Below are positions 7,746-25,247 of a DNA stretch of 64,000 bases, in pieces (within the stretch, counting starts at the first letter, position 1; each line of letters starts with the position of its first letter). Below the pieces are notes generated by a model, which saw only the letters and a list, made by a program, of their open reading frames with translations, ran no database searches and was not told the origin of the DNA. Source of the DNA: Bacilli bacterium (GTDB lineage Bacteria; Bacillota_I; Bacilli_A; RFN20; CAG-826); the NCBI GenBank assembly GCA_051872335.1, contig JBJEDT010000025.1:51365-115364 (forward strand), read 5' to 3'. Made by a program: the position numbers and the translations under genes.

Positions 7746-10181
7746 ATGAAAAAAAATACAAATTCAAAAATCTTATTTGCTTTATCATTAATGTTTGCTA
7801 CTTCAGCTTTAGGATTAATTTCTTTTGGGACAATGTGTGCTTTCCAAAATAAAGAACAACAATCTTTTGAATATCAAACAGATATTAAACCTTTAACTTC
7901 TTATTTTGATGGTGGAATAGGAACATTATCTAACCCATACATAATTAGTAGCGAAGAAACTTTTATAAACTTTCAAAAGCTAGTACAACTTGGATGTTTT
8001 ACATATAATACATACTTTAATTTAGGTGCAGATATTACTTTTAGTGATGATACTATTCTAGAACCTATCGGAACCGAAAACTGCCCATTCAATTCTCAAT
8101 TTGATGGTATGGGATATAAATTATCAAACATTAAAGTATCTTCTGTTAACCATGAGGATGTAGGTGTATTTGGGTATGTTGGTTCAGGTTCATATATTAA
8201 AAATTTAATTCTAGATACACCTTCAATTACTTCAACAGGTCCCTCAACAAAGGTTGATAACCCACTTGAAGGAATTGTACCTTCTAGTTCTATTACTACA
8301 CCAACATATACAACTACAAGTGTAACGATGTCTAGTCGTGTTGTTGAAGGGACAGATTCAAATAATTACACAGTATACTTCCGTTCTGCTAATAAAGGTA
8401 TATTAACTGATGATGGTGTTTTACAAACTGCTAATATTACAAATAATAAAAAGTTTGCAATTCATGTAGATGCTATTATTACAACCTCTATTCTAGTTAA
8501 TAATGAACCTATGGTTGTTACTTATGTAGCTGATAGATTCGCTGTGTATATAGAAAATAAAGCTATACTTGAAACTGAAGGCGTTGTAAGCTTATTTGAT
8601 AGGTCCGATGATGGTGATGGAACTTATACAACAAAAGATCCTCATTATTATGAGGATCAAAATGGTGCAAGAGTCTTAGATGATGTTGTATATTTAGGAC
8701 TATTTGTTGGGCATATTGATGGAGAAGCTTCTTATATTGGTGTATATAATGGCACTTTAACAGCTAATACCAGAGAAACTATATCACATTCATCAATAAT
8801 TGGAAAACATAAAGATGATACCTTACTTAATTCTCTTGATAATGATTACTACTATCAAGACATAAATTTTTCAGAAATGATTACTGCCGTCCCTTCATTG
8901 GGTGATACAGGATACGTAAATACTCAAAATTTTAGTGCTTCTACCGGGGTTGGTCATGACACTGATTTTACAACGATTTTTAATAACACAAACACGAATC
9001 TTGAAGATATTGGAATTGAAATTCCAAATGCTTTTAGAATCTACAATTCTTTTGGGGTTTCCCCATTAGATTCAATTAATACACGTCAATTAGATGAAGA
9101 AACAGGCGAAATCTCTACAGAAATAGAGCCTATGGAAGGTATATATCTAAAAGAGGATATTGAAGAATCCATTACATGGAAAACAGTTCAATATAGATTT
9201 TATATTGGTAATTATAGCACAATGCACACAGTTAAAAATTATGTCCTAAATAATACACTTTGGTTATGGGCAATGCAGGAATATTTAGCAAATGGAGATT
9301 CTACAATAAGCGATATTTTAGGTAATTTATTTGATGGAGAAACAACTGTCTACTTAACTTTAAAGATTTCTTATTCAGTTTCAAATTGTGAAGCGGCTAA
9401 AGATACCATATTTAAATTATATTCTGCTGGTTTCTCAACAAAGAGTGTTCCAAACGACACTTATAACAACAAATTGAGCGCAGATAGCATCGACCAATTT
9501 GGACATGCTAATAATTCTAATATTACAAAAAAAACTATTGTAACAGGAACTGATGAATCTGGTAATGATATTACAACGGAAGAATGGCACTTTACAGATA
9601 TGGAAAGTAGTATTGCTCCTGTTGAATATATTGATAGTGATGGCAATATACAAACAAAAGATTTTGATCCATTAATATGTAGTCAAAACACGAGTTATAG
9701 TAATGTTATTCAGTCAAAAACAATATCTGTTGTAGCTAATACAAGTTCATCTAGTAGTTTCTTTAATAGATCAACTTACGCTCCTCTTTTTGGATTAGGT
9801 CTAGAAGGAATTAATGGGACAAATGCACAACTTGATATTTATCGTATAGAAATTCTTATTTCTCACGATCAAGGTAATTTTTCATATTCATTAGATAAAG
9901 TTGATTTCTTATACGATTTAAATGCTACATATGATAGCAGTGCTGCTACTTGGACAGGATGGGCAAAAAAAGAGTCTGGTGTTAAAATTTACTTTATCCT
10001 ACAAGATCTTGAAGATGGAGATACAAATACTAACTTAAATACAGGTGTTGTAATTACATATACACGTTCTAGTGGATATGGTTATAGAGTAACTGCTACA
10101 TATACTGTATTAGGTGATGCATCATATGCCCCTACAAATACAAGTGGTGCTCAAACAGCAACAATTACTGATGGAACATAA
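7746..10181 (+). CDS. Large secreted protein (811 aa), possible beta-helix/GLUG-like adhesin or fibre-associated protein
   Basis: Signal peptide …ISFGTMCAFQN (possibly SipW-type). N-terminal pattern SNPYIIS…YFNLGADITF…PIG…FDGMGYKLSNIKV…GVFGYVGSGSYIKNLIL is typical of parallel beta-helix surface proteins. S/T/N-rich throughout. Confidence 0.45.
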   Translation: MKKNTNSKILFALSLMFATSALGLISFGTMCAFQNKEQQSFEYQTDIKPLTSYFDGGIGTLSNPYIISSEETFINFQKLVQLGCFTYNTYFNLGADITFSDDTILEPIGTENCPFNSQFDGMGYKLSNIKVSSVNHEDVGVFGYVGSGSYIKNLILDTPSITSTGPSTKVDNPLEGIVPSSSITTPTYTTTSVTMSSRVVEGTDSNNYTVYFRSANKGILTDDGVLQTANITNNKKFAIHVDAIITTSILVNNEPMVVTYVADRFAVYIENKAILETEGVVSLFDRSDDGDGTYTTKDPHYYEDQNGARVLDDVVYLGLFVGHIDGEASYIGVYNGTLTANTRETISHSSIIGKHKDDTLLNSLDNDYYYQDINFSEMITAVPSLGDTGYVNTQNFSASTGVGHDTDFTTIFNNTNTNLEDIGIEIPNAFRIYNSFGVSPLDSINTRQLDEETGEISTEIEPMEGIYLKEDIEESITWKTVQYRFYIGNYSTMHTVKNYVLNNTLWLWAMQEYLANGDSTISDILGNLFDGETTVYLTLKISYSVSNCEAAKDTIFKLYSAGFSTKSVPNDTYNNKLSADSIDQFGHANNSNITKKTIVTGTDESGNDITTEEWHFTDMESSIAPVEYIDSDGNIQTKDFDPLICSQNTSYSNVIQSKTISVVANTSSSSSFFNRSTYAPLFGLGLEGINGTNAQLDIYRIEILISHDQGNFSYSLDKVDFLYDLNATYDSSAATWTGWAKKESGVKIYFILQDLEDGDTNTNLNTGVVITYTRSSGYGYRVTATYTVLGDASYAPTNTSGAQTATITDGT

Positions 10182-10207
10182 AAATAGATTAATTTTATAA
10201 ACATATT

Positions 10208-10275
10208 AAAAGAGCCTTACCTAAATAATTCTTAATAAAAATAAGAATAATTTAGGTAAGGCTCTTTTTATTTAT
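10208..10275. terminator. Bidirectional rho-independent terminator between convergent genes (about 23-bp stem)
   Basis: aaagagccttacctaaataattc / gaataatttaggtaaggctcttt inverted repeat. It is followed by TTATTTAT on the + strand and by a T-rich run on the - strand. Confidence 0.7.
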
Positions 10276-10278
10276 ATA

Positions 10279-11187
10279 TTAACTAGCAAACAATGATAAT
10301 GCAGTAACTGAAAATGATAATAATTGATAACAGTTAGATGAACCATTTTCTTTATCTTTATAATAATATATATCATTACCAGAACGTCGAGAATAAGTAT
10401 AATATGTATCACTAGCATTTGAGAATTCTATTGTAAAGAATACAACAATTGTTTTTCCACTTAATGACGTTCCGGAAACATAAGATAAGTCAACTCCATC
10501 AAAGTTACTTCCATCTCCTGATTCATTAAATACGTCAGTTAATGAAGTATCTCTATCACTTAATTCATAACCATTTAAGAAATTTAATGCTGAAGTATTC
10601 ATAGTTGCATTATCTTCTTTTAGCATAGCTCCTGAATAAATATTAATAGCTTCTGATAAATATATACCACCTAATACTTCGTCAGTATCTTTATCTACTT
10701 TATACATAGTAAGGACATCTTCCTCAACTAGAGTAGCAGTATAATTTGTTGAAGTATATTTTGTAATAGAAAGACCTGCACGAGATATTTGAGAAGATGA
10801 ACTTATAGTTAATTCAAAAGCATAAGTATATCGTGTATCAGGGAATATATCAGTAATATTCCACAATTCAGATGCAGACTCACTCATTTCAATAAAATCA
10901 GATGAATATGTACAAGTACTTATCTCAGCATAATCTTGATAACCAGTATATTTAGTTATTCCGTCATCATCTGTAGTATAGTTTCCTGAATAATACATTA
11001 ATTTATAGTTTTCAACCGATTCATCAATAGTAATATTAGAATTTCCTAAATCTGCATTTCGATTAACAGTAAACCAAGCGAATGTTGCTGTTGCAGCTGC
11101 TCCAAAAGAAATGAGTAAAACAAAAGCACTAAGTAAAACTTGTTTTAATTTAAACTTATTTAGTTCAAGTTTCATACTTTTGTCCAT
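10279..11187 (-). CDS. TasA/camelysin-family secreted protein (SipW-cognate signal peptide)
   Basis: N-terminus …GAAATATFAWFTVNRN…. The C-terminal region is S/T-rich. Confidence 0.6.
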   Translation of the reverse strand: MDKSMKLELNKFKLKQVLLSAFVLLISFGAAATATFAWFTVNRNADLGNSNITIDESVENYKLMYYSGNYTTDDDGITKYTGYQDYAEISTCTYSSDFIEMSESASELWNITDIFPDTRYTYAFELTISSSSQISRAGLSITKYTSTNYTATLVEEDVLTMYKVDKDTDEVLGGIYLSEAINIYSGAMLKEDNATMNTSALNFLNGYELSDRDTSLTDVFNESGDGSNFDGVDLSYVSGTSLSGKTIVVFFTIEFSNASDTYYTYSRRSGNDIYYYKDKENGSSNCYQLLSFSVTALSLFAS

Positions 11188-11222
11188 CTCCTTTCTTTAT
11201 GTTGCTACAAATTAACTTAATT

Positions 11223-11948
11223 TTATTCAAATGGTTTATTAAAGTCTTGGAATAATAAGTTCAATAATTGTCCGATTTCAGGAGCTTGTTCAACCCCAAC
11301 ACGAACTCTTGATAATAATTGGTGATTGTTACCTACTTCATATGAACAAGCCTTAAAAACAACTAAAGGTATATCATATAAATAACATGCTGCAGCAAAG
11401 CCAGCAGCTTCGGTATCAACTGCAAGAACATTATTAATTTTACTAAAATGTTCTTGAATAGTAACTTTAACATCATCTAAATTAGAATGGAATTTATTTG
11501 ATGAAAGCAAAACACCTTGAACGATACGTTTGTTCTTATTCATACCATTTAAAGCATGAATAGTTTGAACAGTATCAAAATCTGAAGTATAGAACATTGG
11601 AAGTTCAGGTATTTGACCATAACGATATTTACCTAAAGCAAGTAGATCAACATCCATTGCATAAACTCTATCTGCAATAAATAAATCACCTTGGTCAAGG
11701 TTTGGTGAAATTGAAGAAACTGTTCCAATATTTACTACTAAATATGGTTTATATTTTTCAATTAATAATGCTGTAATCATAGCAGCCATTTCTTGTCCAT
11801 ATCCAGTCATGGCACATGCAATTTCTTTACCACCGAAAATTCCAATATAAACATCATAACGATTAGCTATGACTTCTACACGAGGGTCAATAATTCTTTT
11901 TTGAATATACTCGACATCATCTAAACGAGCACCAACAATTAAAATCAT
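11223..11948 (-). CDS. mtnN: MTA/SAH nucleosidase (MtnN/Pfs) family protein, possibly catalytically divergent
   Basis: Collinear with E. coli MtnN (ILIVGARLDDV vs IGIIGAMEEEV; AVDTEAAGFAAACYLYDIPLVVF vs [23 protein letters not shown]). The residue aligned by eye to the catalytic Asp197 (SD) is SY here. Confidence 0.6.
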   Translation of the reverse strand: MILIVGARLDDVEYIQKRIIDPRVEVIANRYDVYIGIFGGKEIACAMTGYGQEMAAMITALLIEKYKPYLVVNIGTVSSISPNLDQGDLFIADRVYAMDVDLLALGKYRYGQIPELPMFYTSDFDTVQTIHALNGMNKNKRIVQGVLLSSNKFHSNLDDVKVTIQEHFSKINNVLAVDTEAAGFAAACYLYDIPLVVFKACSYEVGNNHQLLSRVRVGVEQAPEIGQLLNLLFQDFNKPFE

Positions 11949-11960
11949 TAGTCATCCCTC

Positions 11961-13505
11961 CTATTTCTTACGTTCGAATTCATTATTCTTTAAGAATAAT
12001 TCGAACTCTTCTCTACTTAAAGGTTTTGAATAATAATAACCTTGAATGAAGTCACATTCTGAAGCCTTACAAATAGCAACTTGTTTAGCAGTTTGAATAC
12101 CTTCAGCAACAACTTTCATATCGAGAGCCTTTGCCATCGCAATAGTAGTTTTTGCAATATCACGTGACTTCTTATCAACTTCGACAGAATCAAAGAAAGA
12201 TTTATCAATCTTTAAAGTATCCATCGGTAATTTACGTAAGTTAGATAATGATGAATATCCAGTACCAAAATCATCAACAGCTAACTTAATGTGTAAAGCT
12301 TTTAATTGTTTAATAATAGATAATAAATATAGCATATCTCTACGAGCACTTGATTCAGTTAATTCAAGTTCAAGTTGTAAAGGAGATACCCCAAATTTTT
12401 CCATCGTTTCAGTTAAGAATTGAATAAGGTCAGTACGATAAATACCATTTCTTGAAAGGTTAACTGAAACATTAACTAAACGAGAACCTCTTTTTTTCCA
12501 GTATGCTAAGTCTTGGCAAACATGTTCAAACATATATCTATCAATTTCAATAATTTGATCATTACGTTCAGCAAATGGAATAAATGTTGCTGGGTTAACA
12601 ATACCTTTTGTTGGGTGTCTCCAACGAATAAGAGCTTCAGCACCAGTAAATTTTTCAGCTTTTAAATCAAATTTAGGTTGATAGAAAACTTCAAACTCAT
12701 GATTCTTAATTGCGTTTTCAATATCGTGAGCAAGTTCAAGTTCATCAATACTCTTTTGAATCATTGATTCTTCAAAAATAACAATGTTACCTTCTAGAGG
12801 CATATACATAGAGTTACGAGCAACTTCACAACGAGTAACAATATCATCAATAGATAATTTTTTATCATCTTCACATAAACATGTTTTATATGTTAATGTT
12901 GTAGGAACTCCTTTTTTATGAACATTAGAGTTAATAGCTTGATATAAAGCATCCATTTCTTTAATAATGGTTTTAGCATCATCAGCTTCCATATAAATTA
13001 AGAAAGCACCAGATGATCTTAAACCATATAATACGTTGTTAGCATTAACTTTGTAACGACCAACAATCGTTTCAGCAGCACAACGTGTCATTGCACGTGA
13101 AACATCTAAAGATGCTGTTGTAACACCACTACCGACAACATCAGAAGGCTTATCTAAATCAAGAGTTCCAATATAAGTAAATCTTCTATTTTTAATATTT
13201 CTTCTTTTTTCAACACCTAAATGAAAGTAGTTTTCATTATAAATATTATAATTACGATCGTAATAAGCAAGGTGATATTCACGAGATTCAGCAGCCCTTA
13301 CACGAACAGAACGTGCTGTGATTAACAAACCTAAAGCAATTAATATGCCAAGGAAAGAGCCACCTATATAGTAGTAATATGTTTGATCTAGTGGATGTCT
13401 TAAGAAAAACCATACTAATACACCAACACCAGCTGCAAAGAATAAATATCCAAAAATATTAAGTAAAATAATTTTTGTTTTAGCTTTTTTCATATTACTT
13501 ATCAC
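11961..13505 (-). CDS. Membrane-anchored degenerate-GGDEF/EAL c-di-GMP phosphodiesterase
   Basis: Two N-terminal TM helices. EAL-domain motifs EVFYQPK…GAEALIRW…, a DDFGTGYSS-type stretch and QG.Y are present. No intact GGDEF motif. The start overlaps the upstream sipW-like stop by 11 bp. Confidence 0.7.
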   Translation of the reverse strand: MISNMKKAKTKIILLNIFGYLFFAAGVGVLVWFFLRHPLDQTYYYYIGGSFLGILIALGLLITARSVRVRAAESREYHLAYYDRNYNIYNENYFHLGVEKRRNIKNRRFTYIGTLDLDKPSDVVGSGVTTASLDVSRAMTRCAAETIVGRYKVNANNVLYGLRSSGAFLIYMEADDAKTIIKEMDALYQAINSNVHKKGVPTTLTYKTCLCEDDKKLSIDDIVTRCEVARNSMYMPLEGNIVIFEESMIQKSIDELELAHDIENAIKNHEFEVFYQPKFDLKAEKFTGAEALIRWRHPTKGIVNPATFIPFAERNDQIIEIDRYMFEHVCQDLAYWKKRGSRLVNVSVNLSRNGIYRTDLIQFLTETMEKFGVSPLQLELELTESSARRDMLYLLSIIKQLKALHIKLAVDDFGTGYSSLSNLRKLPMDTLKIDKSFFDSVEVDKKSRDIAKTTIAMAKALDMKVVAEGIQTAKQVAICKASECDFIQGYYYSKPLSREEFELFLKNNEFERKK

Positions 13506-14262
13506 CTTCCCTTTCTTCTTTATCTTTTAAGTTTTCGTCTTTATTTTCTTTTTTTAATTCATCAAGAATTTGATTCTTCATTTCTTGTTTTAGTCTTTCC
13601 ATTTCTTCTTCGTGAGTCTCAAGACCTTCTTGTTTTCTTTTCTTTTCCATCTCATTTTCAACATGTACTAAACGTGCTTGTTTAATAAAATCAATAATGG
13701 AAACAATAAGAACATATCCTCCAGGAATCATTATTAGTAAAAATGAGACCAATGGTTTAGAAATAAATGAATAAACTACACCAAGTGAATAGGAATTTTT
13801 AACAACTTTACCAATAAGATAGTTACTATTAATAAAGTCATGTGGTTTTCCTTCACAACCACTTGTTCCACAAGATGAAGCTTCCATATTATCACCAAAA
13901 CATTCTAGTGTATATGTACCATCCTCATTTGCAGATATACCAACTAATCGATGAGTTACAATTTTATCATCGGATGTTCGATAAAATGTAATAATATCAC
14001 CTTCAACAATTATATTACCTTCTTCATCTACTTGTTTGGCAACTAATGTCGAAGGATCTACTTCTTTAACAATTACCATAGAATCAACTTTTAAAGTTGG
14101 CTCCATAGAATCAGTATAGACAATCAAAAATGATGTTTTACCAATTTGTGGTACTCCATAATTTCCTTGTCTTGATGTAAGTGAAATAATATTAATACCA
14201 AAGAAAAGGACTACAAAAACTGATAATAAAATTGATGCAATAATTTTAAGTTTCTTTTTCAT
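13495..14262 (-). CDS. sipW: SipW-type (archaeal/ER-type) signal peptidase I with C-terminal TM anchor and K/E-rich tail
   Basis: N-terminal TM, then catalytic-Ser motif YTDSMEPTLKVDSMVIV (SMEP, as in SipW). A second TM lies near residue 170, followed by a 60-aa K/E/D-rich tail. Confidence 0.7.
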   Translation of the reverse strand: MKKKLKIIASILLSVFVVLFFGINIISLTSRQGNYGVPQIGKTSFLIVYTDSMEPTLKVDSMVIVKEVDPSTLVAKQVDEEGNIIVEGDIITFYRTSDDKIVTHRLVGISANEDGTYTLECFGDNMEASSCGTSGCEGKPHDFINSNYLIGKVVKNSYSLGVVYSFISKPLVSFLLIMIPGGYVLIVSIIDFIKQARLVHVENEMEKKRKQEGLETHEEEMERLKQEMKNQILDELKKENKDENLKDKEEREGDK

Positions 14263-14282
14263 CAGTTTCTCCTTTCCTCATT

Positions 14283-16412
14283 TTATGCGTTATTGTTGTT
14301 ATCGTCAGAATATTCAAAGTCGAAGTCATCATCATCAAAAGATTCTTCATCTTCCTCTTCTTCAAATTGTTGATCAACAATTTTCTTAGCTTCTTCTTCG
14401 TTTTCAATGTAATCGCTGTTATCTTCTATTTCTTCTTCATTAGAATTATCATCTTCATTATTTTCTTCATTAATTTCTTCTTGTTCTAATAATGTAGATT
14501 CGTTGTCTTCTTCTAAAGAAGTAGAAGTTTCTAAAGTTTCAGATGATTCTTCTTGATTATCGATATTATTATCAATATCCTCTGCATAAGTAAAATCATC
14601 GTCTTCTTCATCAAATTCATCAAGTCCAGCGTTACGACGATATGCTTCTTGAGCCATACGCAATGCTTCTAGTTTTGCTTGAGCTTTAGCAATTAATTCA
14701 TTACGTAAAGATTGTTGACGACGTCTTTCTTCTTCAAGTAACATTTCACGTTGTCTTTGTTCACGTTCAAGTTTTGCTTGTTCACGTGCAGCAATCTTAT
14801 CCTCAATAGCTTTTTTACGAGCTTCTTCCTTAGCCTTAATTTCTTCCATTCGTGCTCTACGACTTTCTTCCTCGATTTTAAACATTTCTTCAGCTTCCTC
14901 AAGGAGTCGCTTTTCTTCTTCCTCTTCTTCAGTTAAGCCAGAAGGACGAAGAACTTTTAATTCGGCTAAACGATCTTGCTCAGCTTGACGTTTTGCATTT
15001 TCACGTGCACGATTTAATGCATCTCTTTCTGCATCAAGAATTGCCTTTTCACGAGCTTTCTCTCGAGCAATTCTTTCTTCTTCAAGACGTTTTGCTTCTG
15101 CTTTTTCAAAAGCAATACGTGCTCTTTCTTCTGCAGCTTTTTGTTCTGCACGCATTTTTGCAATACGCTCTTCTTCTTTTTGCTTTGCAAGAGCTCTTTG
15201 TTTTTCTCTTTCTAAACGTTTTTGTTCAAGCACTTTGAGTTTTGCTAATCGTGCTTGTTCTTGTTTCTTTCTTAGATTTCTCATTTTAGGAGTTAAGTTT
15301 CTAGAAATTTCACTGCTTCCAGTTCCACCAACATAACGACCCTCAATATCAAATTTAGAATCCAAGAAATCTTTATCAATTACTCTATTACCAATCTTTG
15401 GTTGAATACGATAAGCCTTAACTTTTGCAAGGTCTATCATACGAGTCTTGTTTGTTTGTAAGGATATAATTCCTCCAAACATATTTTTTTGTAATTCATC
15501 AACATAAGGTTCATCAAATTTAGCTGATGTTTCCTTAACATGAATTGAAATACCTAACTTATCGTATGACTCCATAAATTTCCATAAAATATGAGCTTTT
15601 TTATAGTTAGGGTTTTTAACAATAATGTTTGTTAACATAATAGGTGAGTTAACAGGTTTACAATCTTTTAATTGTTCCATAAACCAGCTTTGTGAAAGGT
15701 AAGCTAATCTACGACGAAGTAATGCAATCTTTTTTAAAAGCAATTCATTAGCTTCCCTATTACCTTCATCAGCTGAAGGAACAGAAATTTTAACTTTAGT
15801 TTCATATTCATATAAAACTTCACCAACTTGAACTTTGTTTTTAACGACAACTGCATCTGAGTCACGTGTATCAGCGTGTTTTGTAATATAATCATATCTT
15901 TTATTAATGAAGTTTAAAGCACGTTCAATACATGTTTTAATAAAACGGTTTTCATAAATTCCGTATTCATCTTCTGCAGTAACAGTAAGAATTTTATTAG
16001 GAATAATATTGCCATCTTTATCAATATCTTTAATATATTGAGTATGAGATGCTAAGTGAATAACTGATTCATTTGTAATTTTACGAGCTAATTCAATTGG
16101 TGTAATATAACGTTCAAGACGAATATGCTTTTTTGGATCTTTAGAAATGTTTTCTAAAGCAGGAATAGCATTTTCAAAGTGTTGAATCCAAAGTAGATCA
16201 TATTTTTTTGTCTCTGTACGAGATAATTGTGAAATTTCTTGATCTGGAGAATTTCTAATAGCAACTAAGAATTCACGTGAAGTTGGGTCACTATCAACAA
16301 CTTCATTAACTGCTTCAATATAGCGTTTATGAACATCATCAAATGGAGAAGGTCCTAGATTACTTAAATCAACAGGAGATTCTACTTGTTTGTTCTTTTC
16401 TTCATCTGCCAT
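14283..16412 (-). CDS. McrB-partner protein: unknown N-domain (about 370 aa) + roughly 230-aa K/E/R/A coiled coil + poly-acidic C-terminal tail
   Basis: Located 86 bp downstream of the McrB-like gene (the McrC position). N-domain contains DEYGIYENRFIK. Residues about 380-600 are REKAREKA…/AKRQAEQDRLAELK-type heptads. The C-terminus is …EEEEDEESFDDDDFDFEYSDDNNNNA. No PD-(D/E)xK nuclease motif was recognised. Confidence 0.6.
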   Translation of the reverse strand: MADEEKNKQVESPVDLSNLGPSPFDDVHKRYIEAVNEVVDSDPTSREFLVAIRNSPDQEISQLSRTETKKYDLLWIQHFENAIPALENISKDPKKHIRLERYITPIELARKITNESVIHLASHTQYIKDIDKDGNIIPNKILTVTAEDEYGIYENRFIKTCIERALNFINKRYDYITKHADTRDSDAVVVKNKVQVGEVLYEYETKVKISVPSADEGNREANELLLKKIALLRRRLAYLSQSWFMEQLKDCKPVNSPIMLTNIIVKNPNYKKAHILWKFMESYDKLGISIHVKETSAKFDEPYVDELQKNMFGGIISLQTNKTRMIDLAKVKAYRIQPKIGNRVIDKDFLDSKFDIEGRYVGGTGSSEISRNLTPKMRNLRKKQEQARLAKLKVLEQKRLEREKQRALAKQKEEERIAKMRAEQKAAEERARIAFEKAEAKRLEEERIAREKAREKAILDAERDALNRARENAKRQAEQDRLAELKVLRPSGLTEEEEEEKRLLEEAEEMFKIEEESRRARMEEIKAKEEARKKAIEDKIAAREQAKLEREQRQREMLLEEERRRQQSLRNELIAKAQAKLEALRMAQEAYRRNAGLDEFDEEDDDFTYAEDIDNNIDNQEESSETLETSTSLEEDNESTLLEQEEINEENNEDDNSNEEEIEDNSDYIENEEEAKKIVDQQFEEEEDEESFDDDDFDFEYSDDNNNNA

Positions 16413-16435
16413 TTTATAATCCTCCTTTCTTGAAA

Positions 16436-16498
16436 TTCATAATATATATAATAATGAAAATATAAATATATATAATATAAATAATATATATATAATAA
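16436..16498. repeat. (TA)n / ATA-rich simple-sequence tract in the McrB-like/partner intergenic region
   Basis: aatatatataataatgaaaatataaatatatataatataaataatatatatataataatt, seen directly. Confidence 0.7.
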
Positions 16499-18034
16499 TT
16501 AGCTTCCCACTTTCATTAAGTTTTCAATAAACTTCTTAGATTCAGGGAATGTGTTTTTACCAAATAAATGGTCAAGTTGTTCTATTAATTGACGTAATTC
16601 GTCTTTTAAGAAACCAATATTTAAGGATTCAAATTTCTTCAAAATCTTTGTTGAGAAGATATAGTCAAATCCATCAATTTCAGTACCACCACATGCAACG
16701 TACATTGGGACGAATAACTTTAATTGTTTCATAATACGGTTACCGAAAGCCAACTTGAAGTTTTTAATAACGAAGTCATCAAGTTTAGCAAATTTTTCAA
16801 TAATTTTATTTGAAACAGGATAGTTAGTTAATGCTTCTTGATATAGCTTATGTAAATATTCATAAGAAATATTTACTGGATCAGTAAAGTCTGCTTCAAA
16901 AGCAACACCTTTATTATTTAAGAAAATACAGATAGCACGGTCGTAAACCTTATCTGAAATAGTAAATGTAGAGTCATCGTTGTTAGCTGTTCCAATAAAC
17001 CATAGGTTTTGTGGAATTAATAATTTACCATCAGTAACATGTGCAGGGTCAGTTTTTGGATCTGGTGAAGAAATAAGTTCAACAATCCATTCATTAACGT
17101 TAGGCATTTCCATAATGGACAAGAATTCTGCAAAATAATACTCAATACGAGCTAAGTTCATTTCGTCGAGGACGATAACGTTACAGTCTTCACGATATGT
17201 ACATTCATAAATAATCTTTAAGAATTCAGTTTCATTAAATTTCTTTGTAAATTCGTTGTAATATCCGATAAGTTCTGAACGGTCACGCCAAGATGGTTGA
17301 ACAGGACAAATCTTTGTATCATTTTGGAAGAATTTTCCTAGTGCATATGGTAAGGAGGTTTTACCAGTACCAGAAATACCTTCTAGAATTAATAGTTTAG
17401 ATGCACCTAAACCAGCAAAGAAAGCACGAATAACTTTTAGTTCATAATATAGACCAAGTTGAGATGCAGCAAAGTTTCTAAAACGTTCACATAATTGTTC
17501 TAGAGATAGTTTATCAGCATCGTCCATTCGAACTGTCATATCAAGAGATTTATATTTAGCATCAACAAGAGCTAATTTTGTAAAACGACATTCAGTATTT
17601 GGACCTTTATCTTCTTCTTCCTCTTCTTCCTCTTCTTCAGGTAACTTACCACCTAAAGCATTAACTTTTAAGTTGAGAATTTTATTTCTTTCTTCTATAG
17701 CTTTATATAGTTCATAATTCAAACGTTCAACTTGTTGCATAAGTTCTTGTTGCTCTTGAACTTTTTTGCTAAAGCGGAATAATTTTCTAAATAGTAAAAA
17801 GAATAAGAAAATAATACCACCTATTAAAGCAGCAATAATGAGATAATAAATAACAAATAAAATCCATCCACCAGCACCGAATCCTGGTTTATATAGAATT
17901 AATAAATCGTTATAATCTCTAAAATTTTGACCGACTTCAGACCATGGATCTACAAATGTTAATTTGAGGAATCTTACAAGGTCTTGTATAAATAGTTGCC
18001 ACATGGCAGCTACATATTGGAAAAAGTCATTCAT
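16499..18034 (-). CDS. Membrane-anchored McrB-like AAA+ (AAA_5) GTPase
   Basis: One TM helix (GWILFVIYYLIIAALIGGIIFLFFLLF), a coiled coil and an E9 tract, then a McrB-type NTPase. Motifs are Walker A LEGISGTGKTSL, VIVLDEMNLARIEYYFAEFLSIME (compare McrB IFIIDEINRANLSKVFGEVMMLME) and WFIGTANNDDSTF (compare McrB IIGLMNTADRS). Confidence 0.7.
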   Translation of the reverse strand: MNDFFQYVAAMWQLFIQDLVRFLKLTFVDPWSEVGQNFRDYNDLLILYKPGFGAGGWILFVIYYLIIAALIGGIIFLFFLLFRKLFRFSKKVQEQQELMQQVERLNYELYKAIEERNKILNLKVNALGGKLPEEEEEEEEEDKGPNTECRFTKLALVDAKYKSLDMTVRMDDADKLSLEQLCERFRNFAASQLGLYYELKVIRAFFAGLGASKLLILEGISGTGKTSLPYALGKFFQNDTKICPVQPSWRDRSELIGYYNEFTKKFNETEFLKIIYECTYREDCNVIVLDEMNLARIEYYFAEFLSIMEMPNVNEWIVELISSPDPKTDPAHVTDGKLLIPQNLWFIGTANNDDSTFTISDKVYDRAICIFLNNKGVAFEADFTDPVNISYEYLHKLYQEALTNYPVSNKIIEKFAKLDDFVIKNFKLAFGNRIMKQLKLFVPMYVACGGTEIDGFDYIFSTKILKKFESLNIGFLKDELRQLIEQLDHLFGKNTFPESKKFIENLMKVGS

Positions 18035-18081
18035 ATTTAACCCTCCTAAATTTCAAGTACTCAAATTAGAAAAAATGATAA

Positions 18082-18864
18082 TTACTTTGTGCTAGATTGA
18101 TTATCCTCAATTCCTAACTCTTTTAATATTTCAGCTCTCATAGCTTCTTTTTCTTTTGCTCTTTCTTCTTCAGAAATAGCTGTTTTTTCTTTAGCTAACT
18201 CCTTAGCGTTTTCTTCTTTTGTTTCTATGATTGTAACTATTAACTTATATCCTTTATATAAGAATAGACAAAACATAGGAACTAAAACACATAATGCAAA
18301 TCCCCATGCATAAGGAGTATCTAATAAAAAGCCATAGACAGCTCCAATACCAGGTACTCGTGTTCCGTTATATACCCCTATAACGGATGAATAAGTGACT
18401 GTTTGTGTTGCTAGTACATCCCCATCTTCGACATAAGTACCTTTTGTGACGAAGAGAGCCCCCTTGTTTTGAATTTCAATAACTTGGTGGGTAACAATTT
18501 CACTTTGTCCATCACCATCAATATCATAAAAGAATGATATAATAGTTTCATTTTCAATAATTTCAATACTTGGTTTCAAATATTGAGTTGCATCATCGTA
18601 TCTAAATGATACTTTTTCAACAACAATCAAATCCCCTTTATTGATTGTGCCTTTCATTGAGCTCGTTTGAACTCTTAAATAAGACTTATTATTTATAGTA
18701 GGAACCCCATAATTATTCTTTGAAGTAAGAGAAACCGCAACAAGAAACACTGATAGTAATACCATTACTACCGTGAAAACATTAATGACAATATTTATAA
18801 TTTTAGAAAACAAAGATTCTTTTTCATCTTTAACATTTTCATTTTGTACTTTTTGTTTTTTCAT
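18082..18864 (-). CDS. sipW: SipW-type signal peptidase I, paralog 2, with C-terminal TM and K/E-rich tail
   Basis: TM, then QTSSMKGTINKGDLIVVEKV (S-M motif), a C-terminal TM (WGFALCVLVPMFCLFLY) and a tail KEENAKELAKEKTAISEEERAKEKEAMRAEILKEL. Confidence 0.65.
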   Translation of the reverse strand: MKKQKVQNENVKDEKESLFSKIINIVINVFTVVMVLLSVFLVAVSLTSKNNYGVPTINNKSYLRVQTSSMKGTINKGDLIVVEKVSFRYDDATQYLKPSIEIIENETIISFFYDIDGDGQSEIVTHQVIEIQNKGALFVTKGTYVEDGDVLATQTVTYSSVIGVYNGTRVPGIGAVYGFLLDTPYAWGFALCVLVPMFCLFLYKGYKLIVTIIETKEENAKELAKEKTAISEEERAKEKEAMRAEILKELGIEDNQSSTK

Positions 18865-18901
18865 TTACTTCCTCGTTCAAATAATAGTTAAGTTTTGTTT
18901 T

Positions 18902-20197
18902 TTAGTGTCCCCATTCATCTTGGCTGTTTACATCTCTACCATTCAAAATAATATTTGCAATAAAACTCGAATCAGACGAATCACTGCTGCAATCTAAATC
19001 CCATCCTTCTGCCCACATAGTGACAATTAATTTTTTAGCTTCTCTACGTGTAACATAAGTTAAAGCATTATCTATTCGTTTATATGCGTTAGTAGATGAA
19101 GATGTTGTTCTTTTTTTATCTAAAGCATCTTCTTCATAAAGAATTAGATTTTCCCCATTAACAACTTTAGATTGTTCAACATCTATAGGATTTGCATTTC
19201 CCCATGAATTTGCAAAGAAACCACCTACAAGTTCATGCTTTTCAAGTCCTGATGCACGAGCATTTTCTGAATATACTAGATTTGCACCATTTAGCAAACT
19301 ATATCTACCATAAAGAATTTCATTCTTTCTATATTCAGTTGCCCCATCATCAATAGAAGGATATACATCATAATATCCATCCTGAGGATCAGCATCTAAA
19401 CGACCATAATATTTTGTTTTTTGAAGAATAGAATTTTCATATGTTGGATTTCCATCAAATATATTATAAGTAAATCTATTGGTTCTATTTCCATCATCAT
19501 CTGTGTAATCTAATTCACTAAAAAACCCAATTCTAATATAGTTACTAACTTTATTTAATCGTTCTTCAGTATAACTAGAAACTGCTGCTTTTTCAGCGTT
19601 TTTTTCAGTATCTGGAAGAATAGATATATTTGAAGATAAAAAGACAAATACAGGAACATTTGTTGCTCTAACATAGAACTCAAATTCATAGTAATAATCT
19701 TTTACTTCGTTTCGTGTAACAGTAGTTCTACCACCAATATCAGTTAATGTTGGCATTTTAGTATAAACAGGCCTTGTTGATTCTAAACTAGTGGCATTAT
19801 TAAGCCATTCATCATAATAAGCATTTGAAATTGGTTGAAGTTTTGTACCTTCATCATATTGACCAAAATCAGTTAATACATCTGTATTAATATGAAATTC
19901 AGTATCAGTAAAATAATATATATCATCAACCCACTCACCAGTATCATCACTATATTTTTCTTTTAGTGAAGATAAGGATTCAGCAGGTGCTTTTAAACCA
20001 AGTTGCAAAACTCCCTCATCATCATAAATGGTATAAGATAAGTTATCAACCTGCAAAGCATTTGAAAATTCATACCACGCAACTGTAACAGTTACAAGAG
20101 ATGCTACAGCAAGAACAAACGAAGAGAAAGCTGCCATTACTTTATAATTTATTTTCTTATTCATATTGGTAGCTTCCTCCTTTCGTTTAATTTTCAA
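18902..20197 (-). CDS. TasA/camelysin-family secreted protein (SipW-cognate signal peptide)
   Basis: N-terminus …VASLVTVTVAWYEFSN…. C-terminal motif VTMWAEGWDLDCSSD. Confidence 0.6.
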   Translation of the reverse strand: MKIKRKEEATNMNKKINYKVMAAFSSFVLAVASLVTVTVAWYEFSNALQVDNLSYTIYDDEGVLQLGLKAPAESLSSLKEKYSDDTGEWVDDIYYFTDTEFHINTDVLTDFGQYDEGTKLQPISNAYYDEWLNNATSLESTRPVYTKMPTLTDIGGRTTVTRNEVKDYYYEFEFYVRATNVPVFVFLSSNISILPDTEKNAEKAAVSSYTEERLNKVSNYIRIGFFSELDYTDDDGNRTNRFTYNIFDGNPTYENSILQKTKYYGRLDADPQDGYYDVYPSIDDGATEYRKNEILYGRYSLLNGANLVYSENARASGLEKHELVGGFFANSWGNANPIDVEQSKVVNGENLILYEEDALDKKRTTSSSTNAYKRIDNALTYVTRREAKKLIVTMWAEGWDLDCSSDSSDSSFIANIILNGRDVNSQDEWGH

Positions 20198-20244
20198 AGT
20201 GTAGTATCGTTAAAATATTATCTACCTAATAAATGAATTTTTTA

Positions 20245-21840
20245 TTAATTACCTAGACCTGGAGCATGGAAACAAATACTACCTGTGAATGGTGCTTTGT
20301 TGTCATTTACAGAATTTGTATCCCAACCTTCTGTCCAAATCTTAATTGTTACTTCAGCATAACCTCTAGAATCAGTAATTGCTAAAGGATGATTTTTTGA
20401 TGCATCTTCGTGATATACGAAGTAATCAATACCATGTGCATCTTGTGTTTTAGCTTTGACTTTTTCACTGTATTTGAATGAAATTGATTCATATGCAGTT
20501 CCATCAGTCTTAACAAATTTACCAACGAATGCATTTTTATTAGCACCAATAACTGGTGTAGTAATATCAGATCCACCATTATCAACTACAACACTATATG
20601 TGTCATCATATAATGTATCGCCAGGTAATTCTAAATCTTCATGTTCACCATACCATTTATGGTCAAATCTCTTATAAGTTCCATCTGTTAAGTTATCAAC
20701 AACAGAACTATCAATTGATACGAAATCATCATTTTCTGTATCCCATGCAAATGCATGTCTTGTTGTAACATCATCAACAGTTGTATCGTAGTAATATACT
20801 TTTCTTGTATCTACTGTACCTTTTGCAGCTTCTAATCCATCTGCATCAGTAACATTAACAAAGTAAGTTGATTTATCTGAATCAGAAATGTTTGTAGTGT
20901 TGTAATCCCAAACACCATCAGCATCTAAATCTAGATATCCACCAACATTAGTTGAAACTTTATCATAACTAAAGTTAGATGGTGAATAAATATAATTGTT
21001 ATAATCAGATTCAAATGAAACACGTAAAGTTTTAACAACGTTATGTGTTACAGTTTGATTACCTTGTGTACCACCAATAAAATATGTACTTGCGTTATCT
21101 AAATAAATTGGTTGGTTAGCTACACCATTTGTATTAAATACTAAAGTGAAAGACATATACTTTTCTTTAATTGCTTTAATACCATCATTATAAGCTGTTA
21201 AATCAAGTGCATATTGAGCTAATTCAGCTTCTGAAGCATCATCACCAGGATATACAGGAGCAGTGTAAATTGCTGTATTACTATCATAATTTCCAGTAGC
21301 ACCTGCCAAAGCATTTCTATCTGGAATATCATAAAGTAATACATCATCATTTTTATCTAAACCAGTTCCTAATGCTAAAGATTGATCATTAAAATGACGT
21401 GAAGTAACTGGAGCTATAAAGTTCTCAGATTCTCTATCGGTATAACCATCATTGTAGTAAACAGCACGTAAATGACTTGCTTTGATTTGGTTACCTTTTT
21501 CAGTAAAGTTACTACCTTCTTGATAGTTCCAATAAATGTCGTTAATTTCAACTTCAGTATTTCCACCATCATAAGTAGGAATATCTTCATCACCAACTGC
21601 TTCAACTTTGAATTCATCTCCATTGGTATCACCAAATTGAGCAATTAATGCTTTAGCACCTTCAATAGTGTGTGGTTTAATACCAATAGTCAATGAACCA
21701 TCAATTTTAGCTGTTGTACCTGAGATTGTTGCTGTACCAGTATTTGATACAACGTACCAAGCAAATGTACCACCAACTAAGCAAAGTGTTGCTGCGCCAA
21801 ATGATGCAACCGATAATCCTAATTTCTTAGTATTCTTCAC
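20245..21840 (-). CDS. TasA/camelysin-family secreted protein (SipW-cognate signal peptide), 531 aa
   Basis: N-terminus MKNTKKLGLSVASFGAATLCLVGGTFAWYVVSN is nearly superimposable on TasA MKKKLSLGVASAALGLALVGGGTWAAFND. C-terminal TIKIWTEGWDTNSVND. Confidence 0.7.
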   Translation of the reverse strand: MKNTKKLGLSVASFGAATLCLVGGTFAWYVVSNTGTATISGTTAKIDGSLTIGIKPHTIEGAKALIAQFGDTNGDEFKVEAVGDEDIPTYDGGNTEVEINDIYWNYQEGSNFTEKGNQIKASHLRAVYYNDGYTDRESENFIAPVTSRHFNDQSLALGTGLDKNDDVLLYDIPDRNALAGATGNYDSNTAIYTAPVYPGDDASEAELAQYALDLTAYNDGIKAIKEKYMSFTLVFNTNGVANQPIYLDNASTYFIGGTQGNQTVTHNVVKTLRVSFESDYNNYIYSPSNFSYDKVSTNVGGYLDLDADGVWDYNTTNISDSDKSTYFVNVTDADGLEAAKGTVDTRKVYYYDTTVDDVTTRHAFAWDTENDDFVSIDSSVVDNLTDGTYKRFDHKWYGEHEDLELPGDTLYDDTYSVVVDNGGSDITTPVIGANKNAFVGKFVKTDGTAYESISFKYSEKVKAKTQDAHGIDYFVYHEDASKNHPLAITDSRGYAEVTIKIWTEGWDTNSVNDNKAPFTGSICFHAPGLGN

Positions 21841-23011
21841 TATCGTTTACCTCCTTTTTAAAATTTTTATTCATATTAGTTAAATTTTTCATATCAATAT
21901 TTGTAAAGTTTTTATTTTCGTTAAGTACTATCATTCCTGATTCTTCGTTCATTAAACCGGCTGTTTCTTCTTCCGTATCGAATTCATCACGAAGTGCAAT
22001 ATACATTGAAAGTTGTATACCAGCACCACTAGGAACATTCCCTGTAGCTTCTAAATCATATCCATCAATCCATACAATAATTGTGAAACGAATTGTTTCT
22101 TGCCCTTCGATGTAATCTTCATTTGATTTTAAAATATAATCACTATCATAGAATGGTTCAGCAAATCCTTTATTGATTTCCTTTTCACCAGTACATATTA
22201 GAAGACCATCATCAGTTTTTACGTATCTAGAAATACATTCTCTAGATTCATTATCACTAGTTTCAGTTTTTACAGGTTCAGATCTAACTTTTGCATATGT
22301 TACCATATCATGAGTTTGATCTTCTTCATGAATCAATCCATCACTTCCATATATAACAGAGTTCTTGTAGAATCGTAATCTAATAACATTATCAATTGTG
22401 ATATTAGATTCAGTTGAAACAGTCATATCGTCAATTTTGATATGAAAGTCATAACCTGCTCTTCTACTACCAACATTGCGAATATAGAAAGTATATGCTA
22501 AGAAAGAGCCACCATAAATTTCAGAAGTTCCATTATGTGATCCACCTTGAATTGGATCAATAATATCTTCGTCAGGAAGTTCATCAGCAGCCATTGCATA
22601 AGTTGATCTAGATGACTCAGCTCTTAAACGAGTTGTCTTGTTTTCAAAATAGCCATCTTCGCTCATAGTTAAAGCAAGTTGGTCACGTTCAAGTTGAACT
22701 GTTAAGTTACCAACAAGTGAACTTAAATATGCAATAGTAATGATAATACAAAGTATAACTACAGAAAGAGATAAGAAAAAGTTTACAAACATCTTTTTTC
22801 TGTAACGTGAAGCTACAGGATCTTTGTAATTTTTGAACTTCTCATAAGGGTTATCAATTTCAACGAGTCTTTTCGACTTCTTTTTAGGTTGTTCTTCAGC
22901 CTTGTCTTTATCGTCAGTTTTAGATGAAGGATCAATGTTTTCACTTTCCTCATCCAAAATAGATTTTAGTTCATCTGAAGATAACTCTTCTAATTGATCC
23001 TTTTTAGCCAT
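21827..23011 (-). CDS. Membrane-tethered TasA-like protein: charged N-terminal cytoplasmic tail + single TM + TasA-like ectodomain
   Basis: Residues 1-75 are K/D/E-rich, then a TM FFLSLSVVILCIIITIAYLSS (a degenerate T.AY motif). C-terminal RFTIIVWIDGYDLEATG matches the family IW.EGWD motif. Confidence 0.55.
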   Translation of the reverse strand: MAKKDQLEELSSDELKSILDEESENIDPSSKTDDKDKAEEQPKKKSKRLVEIDNPYEKFKNYKDPVASRYRKKMFVNFFLSLSVVILCIIITIAYLSSLVGNLTVQLERDQLALTMSEDGYFENKTTRLRAESSRSTYAMAADELPDEDIIDPIQGGSHNGTSEIYGGSFLAYTFYIRNVGSRRAGYDFHIKIDDMTVSTESNITIDNVIRLRFYKNSVIYGSDGLIHEEDQTHDMVTYAKVRSEPVKTETSDNESRECISRYVKTDDGLLICTGEKEINKGFAEPFYDSDYILKSNEDYIEGQETIRFTIIVWIDGYDLEATGNVPSGAGIQLSMYIALRDEFDTEEETAGLMNEESGMIVLNENKNFTNIDMKNLTNMNKNFKKEVNDSEEY

Positions 23012-23326
23012 AGTTATCTCCTTGTTTTTTTAATAACGAAAAAAAGTGTAAATGTTCTCCTATTTTTTAATTTTTTACATCAACGACTTCGTATTGATCT
23101 CTCAATACACCATTAGAAGTGAAATCATTAACGTAACAATTAAGAAACAATTGATACATCAACATAGTATTTGGAATAAATCCTATTCAGTTGTAACACA
23201 ATATTAATGCCCTAAATCAATATCATGCTAGATTGATAGATTATTATAAATAATCTTTCAACCTATAAATAATATAACATAATAATTTTATAAGAGTATT
23301 ATTTTTACACAATTTTTTTAAGAAAA

Positions 23327-23359
23327 CATTAAAAAAAGGTACCAAAATCGGTACCTTTT
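23327..23359 (-). terminator. Rho-independent terminator after the sipW paralog 3
   Basis: aaaaggtacc-aaaatc-ggtacctttt hairpin with U7 on the minus-strand transcript, 17 bp past the stop at 23376. Confidence 0.7.
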
Positions 23360-23375
23360 AATAACATTTTAGTGT

Positions 23376-24191
23376 TTATTCGGATTTTTTATCCTTTTCT
23401 TTCTCTTTTTCTTTCATCTCTTTCTTGAGTTCCTCTAAAGCTAAACGCTTAGCTTCCTCAAGAATTTGAGCTTTTTCTTCTTCATGTTGCATAGTTATTT
23501 CTTCAATAGCAGCATCTTTCTTTTGAACAAAGATTAGTCTAATGAATGAATAACCATTCCAGATGAATAATGCAATAAGAGGAAGAACAATTACACAAAA
23601 CATTAATGTAGTATTTGATTGTAATCCATAGACAATAGTGCCCATACCATTTACATGGCCTTTATATTTAGCAATGATTTTATCAGTGGAAATATTAATT
23701 ACATTTGTAGAAATATCTTCTTCAGCATCACCACGTGTGTAAATACCATAAGTTACACTTCCACTTTCTGTAATAATTTCACGAACTTCACGGATTCGGT
23801 GGGTAACAACAGCTTCTTGACCATTAACATATGACCAATACATAATGATGTCACCTTTGTTTTCTCCTAAACTATCATCACCTTTTAAACTCTCAATTTG
23901 TTCTCTTCTTTCAGTAGGATCATTTGAGAATTGTTTACCATAAACTAAATCGCCTTTTTTAAAGGTAGGTGCCATAGAATCAGATAAAACAGGGAATAAT
24001 GAATTACCTGTAATAGGATTACTAGCAACTGAAGATGTATTACTACTTGTTGTTCCCATTGTTAATATAGAAACGATCAATAAGAATACAACTAACAAAC
24101 ACTCAGCGACAGTCAAAGATGTATTAACAATCTTTTTTACTTTTGCTTTTTTATTTTTAGCAACTTCAACATTTTCGACTTGTTGTTCCAT
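23376..24191 (-). CDS. sipW: SipW-type signal peptidase I, paralog 3, with C-terminal TM and K/E-rich tail
   Basis: TM, then FPVLSDSMAPTFKKGDLVYG, a C-terminal TM (LMFCVIVLPLIALFIW) and a tail …EEKAQILEEAKRLALEELKKEMKEKEKEKDKKSE. Confidence 0.65.
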   Translation of the reverse strand: MEQQVENVEVAKNKKAKVKKIVNTSLTVAECLLVVFLLIVSILTMGTTSSNTSSVASNPITGNSLFPVLSDSMAPTFKKGDLVYGKQFSNDPTERREQIESLKGDDSLGENKGDIIMYWSYVNGQEAVVTHRIREVREIITESGSVTYGIYTRGDAEEDISTNVINISTDKIIAKYKGHVNGMGTIVYGLQSNTTLMFCVIVLPLIALFIWNGYSFIRLIFVQKKDAAIEEITMQHEEEKAQILEEAKRLALEELKKEMKEKEKEKDKKSE

Positions 24192-24251
24192 GCTAGCACC
24201 TCACTTTCATTTATTTTATAACAATAAATGTAGAATTCAATTTGTTATAAA

Positions 24252-25247
24252 TTAAGCAGCAGGCATGAATGAAGAGAATTGTAAAGTAGTATTAAATGAA
24301 CCATTTCTAACATCACCTGAGCAATCTTCATCTGTACCTTCAACCCAAATTCTAACACCAATATAGCCTAAATAAGCATCTTGTTCTACACCATTAGCGT
24401 TTGTAAACTTAATGTTATTGCCATCTTCGTCTTGAGCAGTTGCTAAAGTACAAACTTTTAATGAATTAACGGCAGAAGATGTAACTTTATCAGCAATAGG
24501 TGAAAGAATTGGAGTAATTTCACATAAAGAAGTAAAATCATTATATCCAGTATTAAATGAAGTTCCTGTCTTTACACTTGTACTAGTTGCTGAAGTACTT
24601 GTTATGAAATTATAGCCTTTGTCACCCTCTGAATCAGTACCAACAAAAACTCCTGTTAATGTCTTATTTTCACCATTTGATACAAAACCACCACTTTGAT
24701 TAGACTTTAAATCAAAGAAAGCAACTCTAGCACATTGGCTTAGACCCCAAGATTGAGCTACTTCATCTTCAGCAGCGCCAGGTTTTTTAACAGCGTTCTC
24801 TGTTAATTGTGTTTGAGATCCTAACCAAACTTCATAAGCTTTATCAGAACGGAAGCCAAGTACTATTTCATGTACATAAGTATACATTTTATCGCTTGAA
24901 CTAGTTGCCCCAGAAACATCAGCTACATTTGTAAAATTAGTACCATCAGAAGCAATATTTGGTTTAAAGAAAGAGACACCATCTCCTGAAACATCTTGAA
25001 CAGCTTTACCAGTTAAAGCTAAATCAGAGTAAATGCCCCAATCTTTAGCTGCCAATGTATAAGCAGTACCATTGTAAGAAACAACTCTCATTTCTAAGTT
25101 TGAATCTTGTTGAATAGTGACGTTATTTAAAGAAATTTGTGATTGACGTGTTGTTGTAAACCATGCATATGTAGCTGTTGACATTGCAACAGTTGACATT
25201 GCGAGTAATAAACCAGATGTGATTAATAATCTGTGATTTAATTTCAT
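24252..25247 (-). CDS. TasA/camelysin-family secreted protein (SipW-cognate signal peptide)
   Basis: N-terminus …AMSTVAMSTATYAWFTTTRQ…. C-terminal GVRIWVEGTDEDCSGD. Confidence 0.65.
   Translation of the reverse strand: MKLNHRLLITSGLLLAMSTVAMSTATYAWFTTTRQSQISLNNVTIQQDSNLEMRVVSYNGTAYTLAAKDWGIYSDLALTGKAVQDVSGDGVSFFKPNIASDGTNFTNVADVSGATSSSDKMYTYVHEIVLGFRSDKAYEVWLGSQTQLTENAVKKPGAAEDEVAQSWGLSQCARVAFFDLKSNQSGGFVSNGENKTLTGVFVGTDSEGDKGYNFITSTSATSTSVKTGTSFNTGYNDFTSLCEITPILSPIADKVTSSAVNSLKVCTLATAQDEDGNNIKFTNANGVEQDAYLGYIGVRIWVEGTDEDCSGDVRNGSFNTTLQFSSFMPAA

Follow-up and report, generated by a model that had tools for sequence, protein, structure and literature searches.

In a 64,000-nucleotide stretch of DNA from a Bacilli bacterium (contig JBJEDT010000025.1 of assembly GCA_051872335.1, positions 51,365 to 115,364; hereafter the window), 2 adjacent open reading frames on the minus strand encode a membrane-tethered GTPase of the McrB branch, of 511 amino acids (aa) at 16499-18034, and a McrC homolog that carries no recognizable nuclease, of 709 aa at 14283-16412. 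The pair is a further member of a class that has already been named CoCoPALM (Bell et al. eLife 2024;13:RP94800; PMC11090510), a kind that has been little studied. The reading that we favor, and that we hold to be somewhat the better than even one when taken as a whole, is that this module descends from McrBC, that it has neither a DNA reader nor a nuclease, and that it is built into a SipW-dependent pilus or fiber operon. The parts of this reading differ in strength: we are confident of the classification and of the loss of restriction function, and we regard it as a serious but tentative prospect, slightly short of even, that the pair works with the fiber system in its assembly or regulation.

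The 511-aa protein is an AAA+ NTPase of the McrB branch, NxD subtype, tethered by a transmembrane (TM) helix and a helical stalk. We compared its motifs among 21 homologs that are 57-79% identical to the window protein, and observed that the Walker A sequence GISGTGKTS was invariant, along with VLDEMNLARIEYYFAEFLSIME and FIGTANNDDSTF, as were the Walker B sequence VLDEMNLAR and the signature GTANNDDST; all 21 family members matched Pfam AAA_5. When a profile of the GTPase family was searched against 177,635 PDB sequences, chains of E. coli McrB were the sole match (E=7.6e-5 to 1.7e-4). The window GTPase also matched the PADLOC model PDC-M26A, within the GTPase core (E=5e-38). [quoted passage not shown]

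16502-17587, minus strand: AAA+ GTPase domain, aa 150-511, with Walker A at G219-T226, Walker B at D290-E291, and N351-N352-D353 followed by D354
17597-17653, minus strand: disordered acidic linker with an E9 tract, aa 128-146; AF2 pLDDT <50, variable and gapped in homologs
17657-17788, minus strand: helical stalk or coiled coil, aa 83-126, with conserved VERLNxELY...KILNLKV
17789-17866, minus strand: single TM helix, aa 57-82; hydropathy 2.85 for aa 64-82, within AF2 helix 53-126

The N-terminus of the GTPase thus reads as an amphipathic segment, then the TM helix, then the stalk, and AF2 modeled aa 53-126 as one unbroken helix that takes in both TM segment and stalk. Family scans of the N-terminal region found no DNA-binding family. 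The sequence RKLFRFSKK, which follows the TM helix, suggests by the positive-inside rule that the C-terminal side, and with it the stalk and the AAA+ domain, is cytoplasmic. A preliminary description of this DNA, made from its letters and open reading frames, had pointed to McrB/AAA_5 motifs in this gene and had proposed that a TM helix, a coiled coil and an E9 tract replace the DNA reader; both proposals agree with these results. The NxD assignment comes from an alignment (A7) of the GTPase family with its nearest long coiled-coil relatives, where the column reads GTAN-x-D-(D/E)-ST, with N351 and D353 invariant and D354 next to them. Aligned pairwise to E. coli McrB, the motif also admits the reading NxxD, so that the "deletion" which gives NxD is visible in the family alignment only.

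In the 709-aa protein, a McrC homolog, what is left is the ring-binding DUF2357 domain together with a long charged helix. At full length it gave nothing relevant in Pfam, NCBIfam, PADLOC, PHROGs or PDB sequences, the lack of a Pfam match being probably due to its biased composition. Residues 1-380 alone matched DUF2357, the N-terminal domain of McrC, over aa 65-183 with 33.6 bits (E=3.2e-8), above the Pfam gathering cut-off (GA) of 23.3 bits, and most homologs of the partner are likewise annotated as DUF2357. The "370-aa unknown domain" of the preliminary description is therefore a recognizable one. Conservation in this protein was judged from 74 homologs.

15864-16220, minus strand: Pfam DUF2357 core, aa 65-183, with invariant P138, Y153-E154-N155 and R172 (74 homologs)
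15438-16412, minus strand: folded N-domain, aa 1-325, of helices and a long beta-hairpin at 183-212, with no alpha-beta nuclease core
14613-15302, minus strand: K/R/E/A-rich helical region, aa 371-600, a coiled coil or an ER/K single helix of very variable length
14286-14612, minus strand: poly-acidic tail, aa 601-709, net charge -50, lineage-specific

We looked for a nuclease of the PD-(D/E)xK type in the partner by 3 routes: there was no Pfam match, the AF2 model past aa 212 was helical with one strand, and no conserved D...(D/E)xK pattern was present among the 74 homologs. One candidate, a cryptic nuclease at aa 183-212 (the "ETK" of YEYETKVK), was rejected, as the segment is a variable, non-conserved beta-hairpin. 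The earlier statement that the partner lacks a PD-(D/E)xK motif is in line with these results, and so is the broader proposal of a McrBC-derived, membrane-associated NTPase pair without nuclease, to which the DUF2357 homology now adds. As for the roughly 230 aa of K/E/R/A heptads that had been described, the composition was borne out (residues 371-600 are 66% K/R/E/A) and the heptads proved weak: in each stretch of 28 aa only about 4 of the 8 a/d positions hold a hydrophobic residue, and the region may therefore be an ER/K-type single helix and not a classical coiled coil. The poly-acidic tail, also described earlier, is present as listed; a strongly acidic C-terminus occurred in 5 of 76 partner homologs. 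A long charged helical tail, by comparison, was found in all of the partner homologs (median 324 aa). Complete proteins were 394-2247 aa in length, and all but the closest relatives were 22-47% identical to the window protein, which marks the partner as fast-evolving. We saw no TM segment in it. One partner homolog, P0133 (617 aa, DUF2357), came from the EukProt transcriptome of Anaeramoeba ignava, and its source is probably an associated bacterium.

The 2 genes are adjacent and co-inherited with genes for SipW, for pilin-like proteins and for EAL proteins (c-di-GMP, or cyclic di-GMP, phosphodiesterase-type) across hundreds of species of Bacilli and Clostridia. The GTPase occurred in at least 582 species-representative genomes, with more than 8000 close full-length homologs in 90% clusters and 758 clusters at 50% identity (E<=1e-30). 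Carriers among the Bacilli are RF39-like lineages, Acholeplasmatales, Izemoplasmatales and Anaeroplasmataceae, and among the Clostridia Oscillospiraceae, Christensenellaceae, Ruminococcus and others. The 80 loci retrieved all came from metagenome-assembled genomes (MAGs), and the window proteins were mapped onto the open reading frames of 81 non-redundant species-level loci. The counts below have as denominators the loci with enough sequence for the feature in question.

DUF2357 partner the next gene after the GTPase: 70/74 loci, median gap 15.5 nt
At least 1 SipW in the locus: 73/81 loci
SipW directly upstream of the GTPase: 44/73 loci
Pilin-like gene directly upstream of the GTPase: 15/73 loci
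SipW directly after the partner: 41/62 loci
SipW elsewhere within 5 kb after the partner: 8/62 loci
Anchored pilin-like gene within 5 kb upstream: 35/43 loci
EAL genes in the locus: 40/81 loci

Because of these synteny statistics we rejected a random defense-island insertion as the origin of the pair. The preliminary description had argued that the pair is integral to a sipW operon, and the 81 loci from Bacilli and Clostridia support it on this point; we found neither a canonical McrC nuclease fold in the N-domain of the partner nor homologous pairs in defense islands unlinked to sipW. The window is 99% identical to the MAG "Bacilli bacterium SUG2458". Compared with 2 divergent genomes, the window proteins showed identities of 56-58% for the GTPase, 33-34% for the partner, 35-40% for EAL, 23-31% for the pilin-like proteins and 22-29% for SipW, the GTPase being the best conserved protein of the operon. 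The genes of the operon could all be assigned, as pilin-like, SipW, GTPase, DUF2357, EAL or PNP_UDP_1, and no nuclease family was found by Pfam or NCBIfam in any operon protein scanned.

Canonical McrBC, which we take to be the type IV restriction enzyme represented by the E. coli and T. gammatolerans proteins (PDB 6HZ4 and 6UT5), differs from the window pair in several features. It has a DNA-binding N-domain where the window GTPase has a TM helix and stalk, a PD-(D/E)xK nuclease on McrC where none was found here, and an NxxD signature in place of NxD; and it is a defense-island system, whereas the window pair is membrane-tethered and lies in a fiber operon. CoCoNuT systems (CnuB/CnuC) and PDC-M26A are closer, being of the same NxD GTPase branch, with 40-46% identity in the GTPase domain. 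The nearest GTPase relatives outside CoCoPALM are proteins of 600-870 aa with N-terminal coiled coils that match PDC-M26A. As described by Bell et al., CoCoNuTs also have coiled coils fused to their components and McrC homologs that are often without an active nuclease (PMC11090510). They differ from the window pair in that their GTPase bears long, soluble coiled coils, whereas the window GTPase is anchored by a TM helix with a short stalk and it is the McrC homolog that has the long helix, and in that a nuclease (HEPN or other) is always associated, whereas none was found in this operon.

CoCoPALM itself is named in a single paragraph of Bell et al. as belonging to the NxD branch of McrB GTPases. 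That paragraph gives it a GTPase fused to an FtsB-like TM segment and coiled coil, a McrC homolog that also has a coiled coil, and neighbors of the signal-peptidase family, and defers its analysis to a later paper; the text supplements give no CoCoPALM details. The features so described, namely an NxD-type GTPase, an N-terminal TM segment and helix, a helical extension on the McrC homolog and signal-peptidase genes, were all seen here, and nothing in the window contradicts membership as that paragraph defines it. The published FtsB homology of the N-terminus was not reproduced with Pfam hidden Markov models: neither aa 1-150 nor the 21 family members matched FtsB/DivIC at E<=10. Points that the paragraph does not mention, and that the present analysis adds, are that the nuclease is lost completely, that a set of pilin-like genes is present, that SipW paralogs occur as a pair and bear charged tails, that there are EAL/c-di-GMP genes, and that the window partner has an acidic tail. 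The preliminary description did not give the class name, which had been published; what is added here is a description at the level of residues and of the operon, together with the distribution figures. In the literature searched we found no further treatment of CoCoPALM, and none of McrB with SipW, of DUF2357 or of TasA/AAA/pilus.

The minus strand carries every gene between 28745 and 10279. Strong Shine-Dalgarno sequences precede the GTPase (AGGAGG before 18034), the partner (GGAGG before 16412) and the downstream sipW (AGGAG before 14262). Between 23011 and 10279 the coding strand showed no strong terminator-like site, and a strong one is present at 23359-23334, so that the pair lies mid-way in a long operon. 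Its order is anchored pilin-like gene, 2 secreted pilin-like genes, SipW, GTPase, partner, SipW, EAL, PNP_UDP_1/MTAN-like gene and a further pilin-like gene, as listed below with the upstream units; L001 and L003 are related loci.

25719-28745, minus strand: EAL-containing membrane signaling protein, 1008 aa; lies at this operon's distal end in related genomes
24252-25247, minus strand: pilin-like protein, 331 aa, of a separate upstream unit
23376-24191, minus strand: third SipW, 271 aa, of the same separate unit, which ends in the terminator at 23359-23334
21827-23011, minus strand: membrane-anchored pilin-like protein, 394 aa, operon gene 1; TM segment aa 78-96, uncleaved
20245-21840, minus strand: secreted pilin-like protein, 531 aa; SipW-type signal peptide
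18902-20197, minus strand: secreted pilin-like protein, 431 aa; SipW-type signal peptide
18082-18864, minus strand: upstream SipW paralog, 260 aa, with K/E-rich cytoplasmic tail; NCBIfam SipW E=2.5e-14
16499-18034, minus strand: CoCoPALM GTPase, 511 aa, McrB-branch AAA+ with N-terminal membrane anchor; AAA_5 and McrB profile matches
14283-16412, minus strand: McrC homolog without nuclease, 709 aa, cytoplasmic; DUF2357, no TM segment
13495-14262, minus strand: downstream SipW paralog, 255 aa, with K/E-rich cytoplasmic tail; NCBIfam SipW E=1.4e-13, S52 and H104 conserved
11961-13505, minus strand: membrane EAL protein, 514 aa; BLAST to L001/L003 genes with Pfam EAL
11223-11948, minus strand: PNP_UDP_1/MTAN-like protein, 241 aa; BLAST to L001/L003 genes with Pfam PNP_UDP_1
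10279-11187, minus strand: distal pilin-like protein, 302 aa; BLAST to L001/L003 genes

Within the pair, the GTPase stop and the partner start are 86 nt apart (16413-16498), a segment of nearly pure A/T low complexity (TATATA-like) followed by GGAGG, against a median of about 15 nt in related loci.

The SipW proteins that flank the pair matched NCBIfam SipW and sigpep_I_arch. Among homologs of these flanking proteins the catalytic Ser was kept in 97/99 and the catalytic His in 99/99, and both window paralogs are intact; the earlier placement of the pair between 2 SipW paralogs was thus upheld. All 3 SipW paralogs of the window extend past the last TM helix into K/E-rich cytoplasmic tails of 55-75 aa, and SipW-like open reading frames of related loci have tails with a median of 47 aa (48% K/R/E/D; at least 30 aa in 91/103). 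Such tails could be docking sites for the charged helix of the partner.

The pilin-like proteins form a family of their own, marked by the SipW-type signal motif TxAW[FY] and by RIWxEGxDxDC, which is conserved at the C-terminus. The secreted pair of the window carries the signal motifs GGTFAWY and VTVAWYEF and a C-terminal WxEGWD motif, and homologs of these secreted proteins hold the same position in other loci. The 394-aa anchored protein is homologous to the secreted family (hhalign probability 98%, E=3e-13), RIWxEGxDxDC being common to both. That these neighbors are "TasA-like," as had been proposed, is weakly founded, since the relevant matches were marginal: Peptidase_M73 matched one window pilin-like protein below the cut-off (E=0.0017) and 1/25 family members, and cognate_SipW matched 2/25. 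A profile of the family gave no TasA match in PDB. The operons tapA-sipW-tasA of B. subtilis and sipW-bsaA of C. perfringens resemble the present one in having SipW, with catalytic Ser and His, beside secreted proteins with SipW-type signal peptides. They contain no NTPase, in contrast to the GTPase pair present here; also, in the window SipW is duplicated and has long charged tails, and the pilin-like family is only marginally like Peptidase_M73/TasA.

By analogy with the solved McrBC complexes, 6 GTPase subunits would form a ring held against the cytoplasmic side of the membrane; the partner would insert its DUF2357 domain into this ring and stimulate NTP hydrolysis. The long charged helix of the partner would then project into the cytoplasm, where it may dimerize or touch the K/E-rich tails of SipW. 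Nucleotide-driven movement might pass through the bundle of TM helices and stalks to the site of SipW action and pilin assembly, and might there gate or power the processing, assembly or turnover of fibers, with c-di-GMP as a putative upstream signal. In its most specific form the proposal is of a nucleotide-driven pilus machine under c-di-GMP control, in which a membrane-tethered McrB-type ring and a McrC-derived shaft power or gate the assembly or retraction of SipW-processed, donor-strand-type fibers in gut bacteria, namely Mollicutes-related Bacilli and Clostridia; we consider this doubtful as it stands, though worth stating. If it were true, a restriction motor would have been exapted for a task analogous to that of the type IV pilus ATPases PilB and PilT, to which it is evolutionarily unrelated.

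Several points weigh against the reading that we favor. The fast evolution of the partner and its wide range of lengths fit conflict systems too, and the nearest GTPase relatives match PDC-M26A, a model from the PADLOC library of known and candidate anti-phage defense proteins. Homology of the neighbors to TasA was sought and was not established, for the reasons given above. The TasA fibers of B. subtilis are not known to need an NTPase, so that an energy-requiring step is not obviously called for. Ring formation, insertion of the partner and contacts with SipW or pilin-like proteins are drawn from analogy.

The first 2 of these points would suit a conflict or defense system, in which a membrane-tethered McrBC-like sensor guards the pilus or envelope, for instance against pilus-dependent phages, and acts through an unrecognized effector. 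Descent from restriction systems, the CoCoNuT-like long coiled-coil GTPases as closest relatives, and the variability of the partner would all be expected of it. Also, in 1 MAG (locus L003; GCA_964416485.1, CAYQEK010000001.1) a second GTPase/DUF2357-like pair lies at 1-2984, directly upstream of the CoCoPALM operon; it consists of a McrB-like GTPase of 910 aa, cut by the end of the locus, and a 522-aa DUF2357-like core with a zinc ribbon, and it resembles a CoCoNuT-type system. Yet the conserved operon contains no nuclease, HEPN or other effector, whereas nuclease-less CoCoNuTs always have a nuclease nearby according to Bell et al. (PMC11090510). The genes keep a fixed order, and between Bacilli and Clostridia identity to the window declines in rough agreement with vertical descent. 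The GTPase, unlike typical, patchy defense genes, is conserved more strongly than any other gene of the locus. We therefore consider a defense role unlikely, although it is the rival that we would take most seriously.

A role in cell division, membrane organization or the cytoskeleton, with the ER/K helix as spacer or ruler and the pilus linkage as mere co-regulation, could draw on the FtsB homology that Bell et al. report in the CoCoPALM paragraph for the N-terminal region, on the long, stiff-looking and highly length-variable helix of the partner, and on the genome-reduced, Mollicutes-related nature of many carriers among the Bacilli. We regard it as improbable: the FtsB/DivIC search with Pfam was negative, the conserved block holds no division genes, and the near-universal, tight adjacency to SipW and pilin-like genes is hard to ascribe to co-regulation alone. 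Scarcely to be expected, in our view, is a MoxR-like chaperone or remodeling ATPase that matures or inserts a partner protein at the membrane, with an incidental similarity to DUF2357. By fold, the AAA+ domain was matched best by MoxR/RavA AAA+ chaperones; but MoxR proteins have a VWA partner and lack the N-x-D signature, whereas here the neighbor is DUF2357 and no VWA domain is found in the operon, and the search of PDB sequences with the GTPase family profile gave no sequence-level match to MoxR.

On the reading that we favor, of a McrBC descendant built into a SipW-dependent operon, the module would be a housekeeping accessory of a surface-fiber system and not a restriction enzyme. If it does work with the fibers, it would be the first McrBC-type motor shown to have a non-defense function at the cell surface, and the first NTPase tied to fibers of the SipW/TasA type, whose assembly is regarded as needing no input of energy. 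Given at least 582 species genomes, the system may be a major adhesion or biofilm apparatus of the microbiota, many of its carriers being human and animal gut lineages without a cultured model (RF39-like Bacilli, Acholeplasmatales, Oscillospiraceae and Christensenellaceae). The conserved gene set and the residue-level features offer handles for experiments.

Some minor observations concern the loci and their surroundings. The PNP_UDP_1 gene (methylthioadenosine/S-adenosylhomocysteine-nucleosidase-like) is a fixed member of the operon, between 2 EAL genes, in those loci that are RF39-like. Operon contigs with GTPases 50-59% identical to that of the window (L007, L009, L010, L019, L047 and L072) are labeled Bacteroides uniformis, Paludibacteraceae, Hallerella, Bacteroidales or Lachnospiraceae; these are likely mis-binned or mislabeled MAG contigs, and the names not those of true hosts. 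The G+C content of the operon region (8001-28000) is 0.29-0.32, against 0.21-0.28 over most of the remaining window, a difference that could be due to the amino-acid composition of the charged proteins or to a different history. Next to the distal end of the operon, on the opposite strand (7746-10181, plus strand), lies a gene whose 811-aa product has a signal or anchor sequence at its N-terminus.

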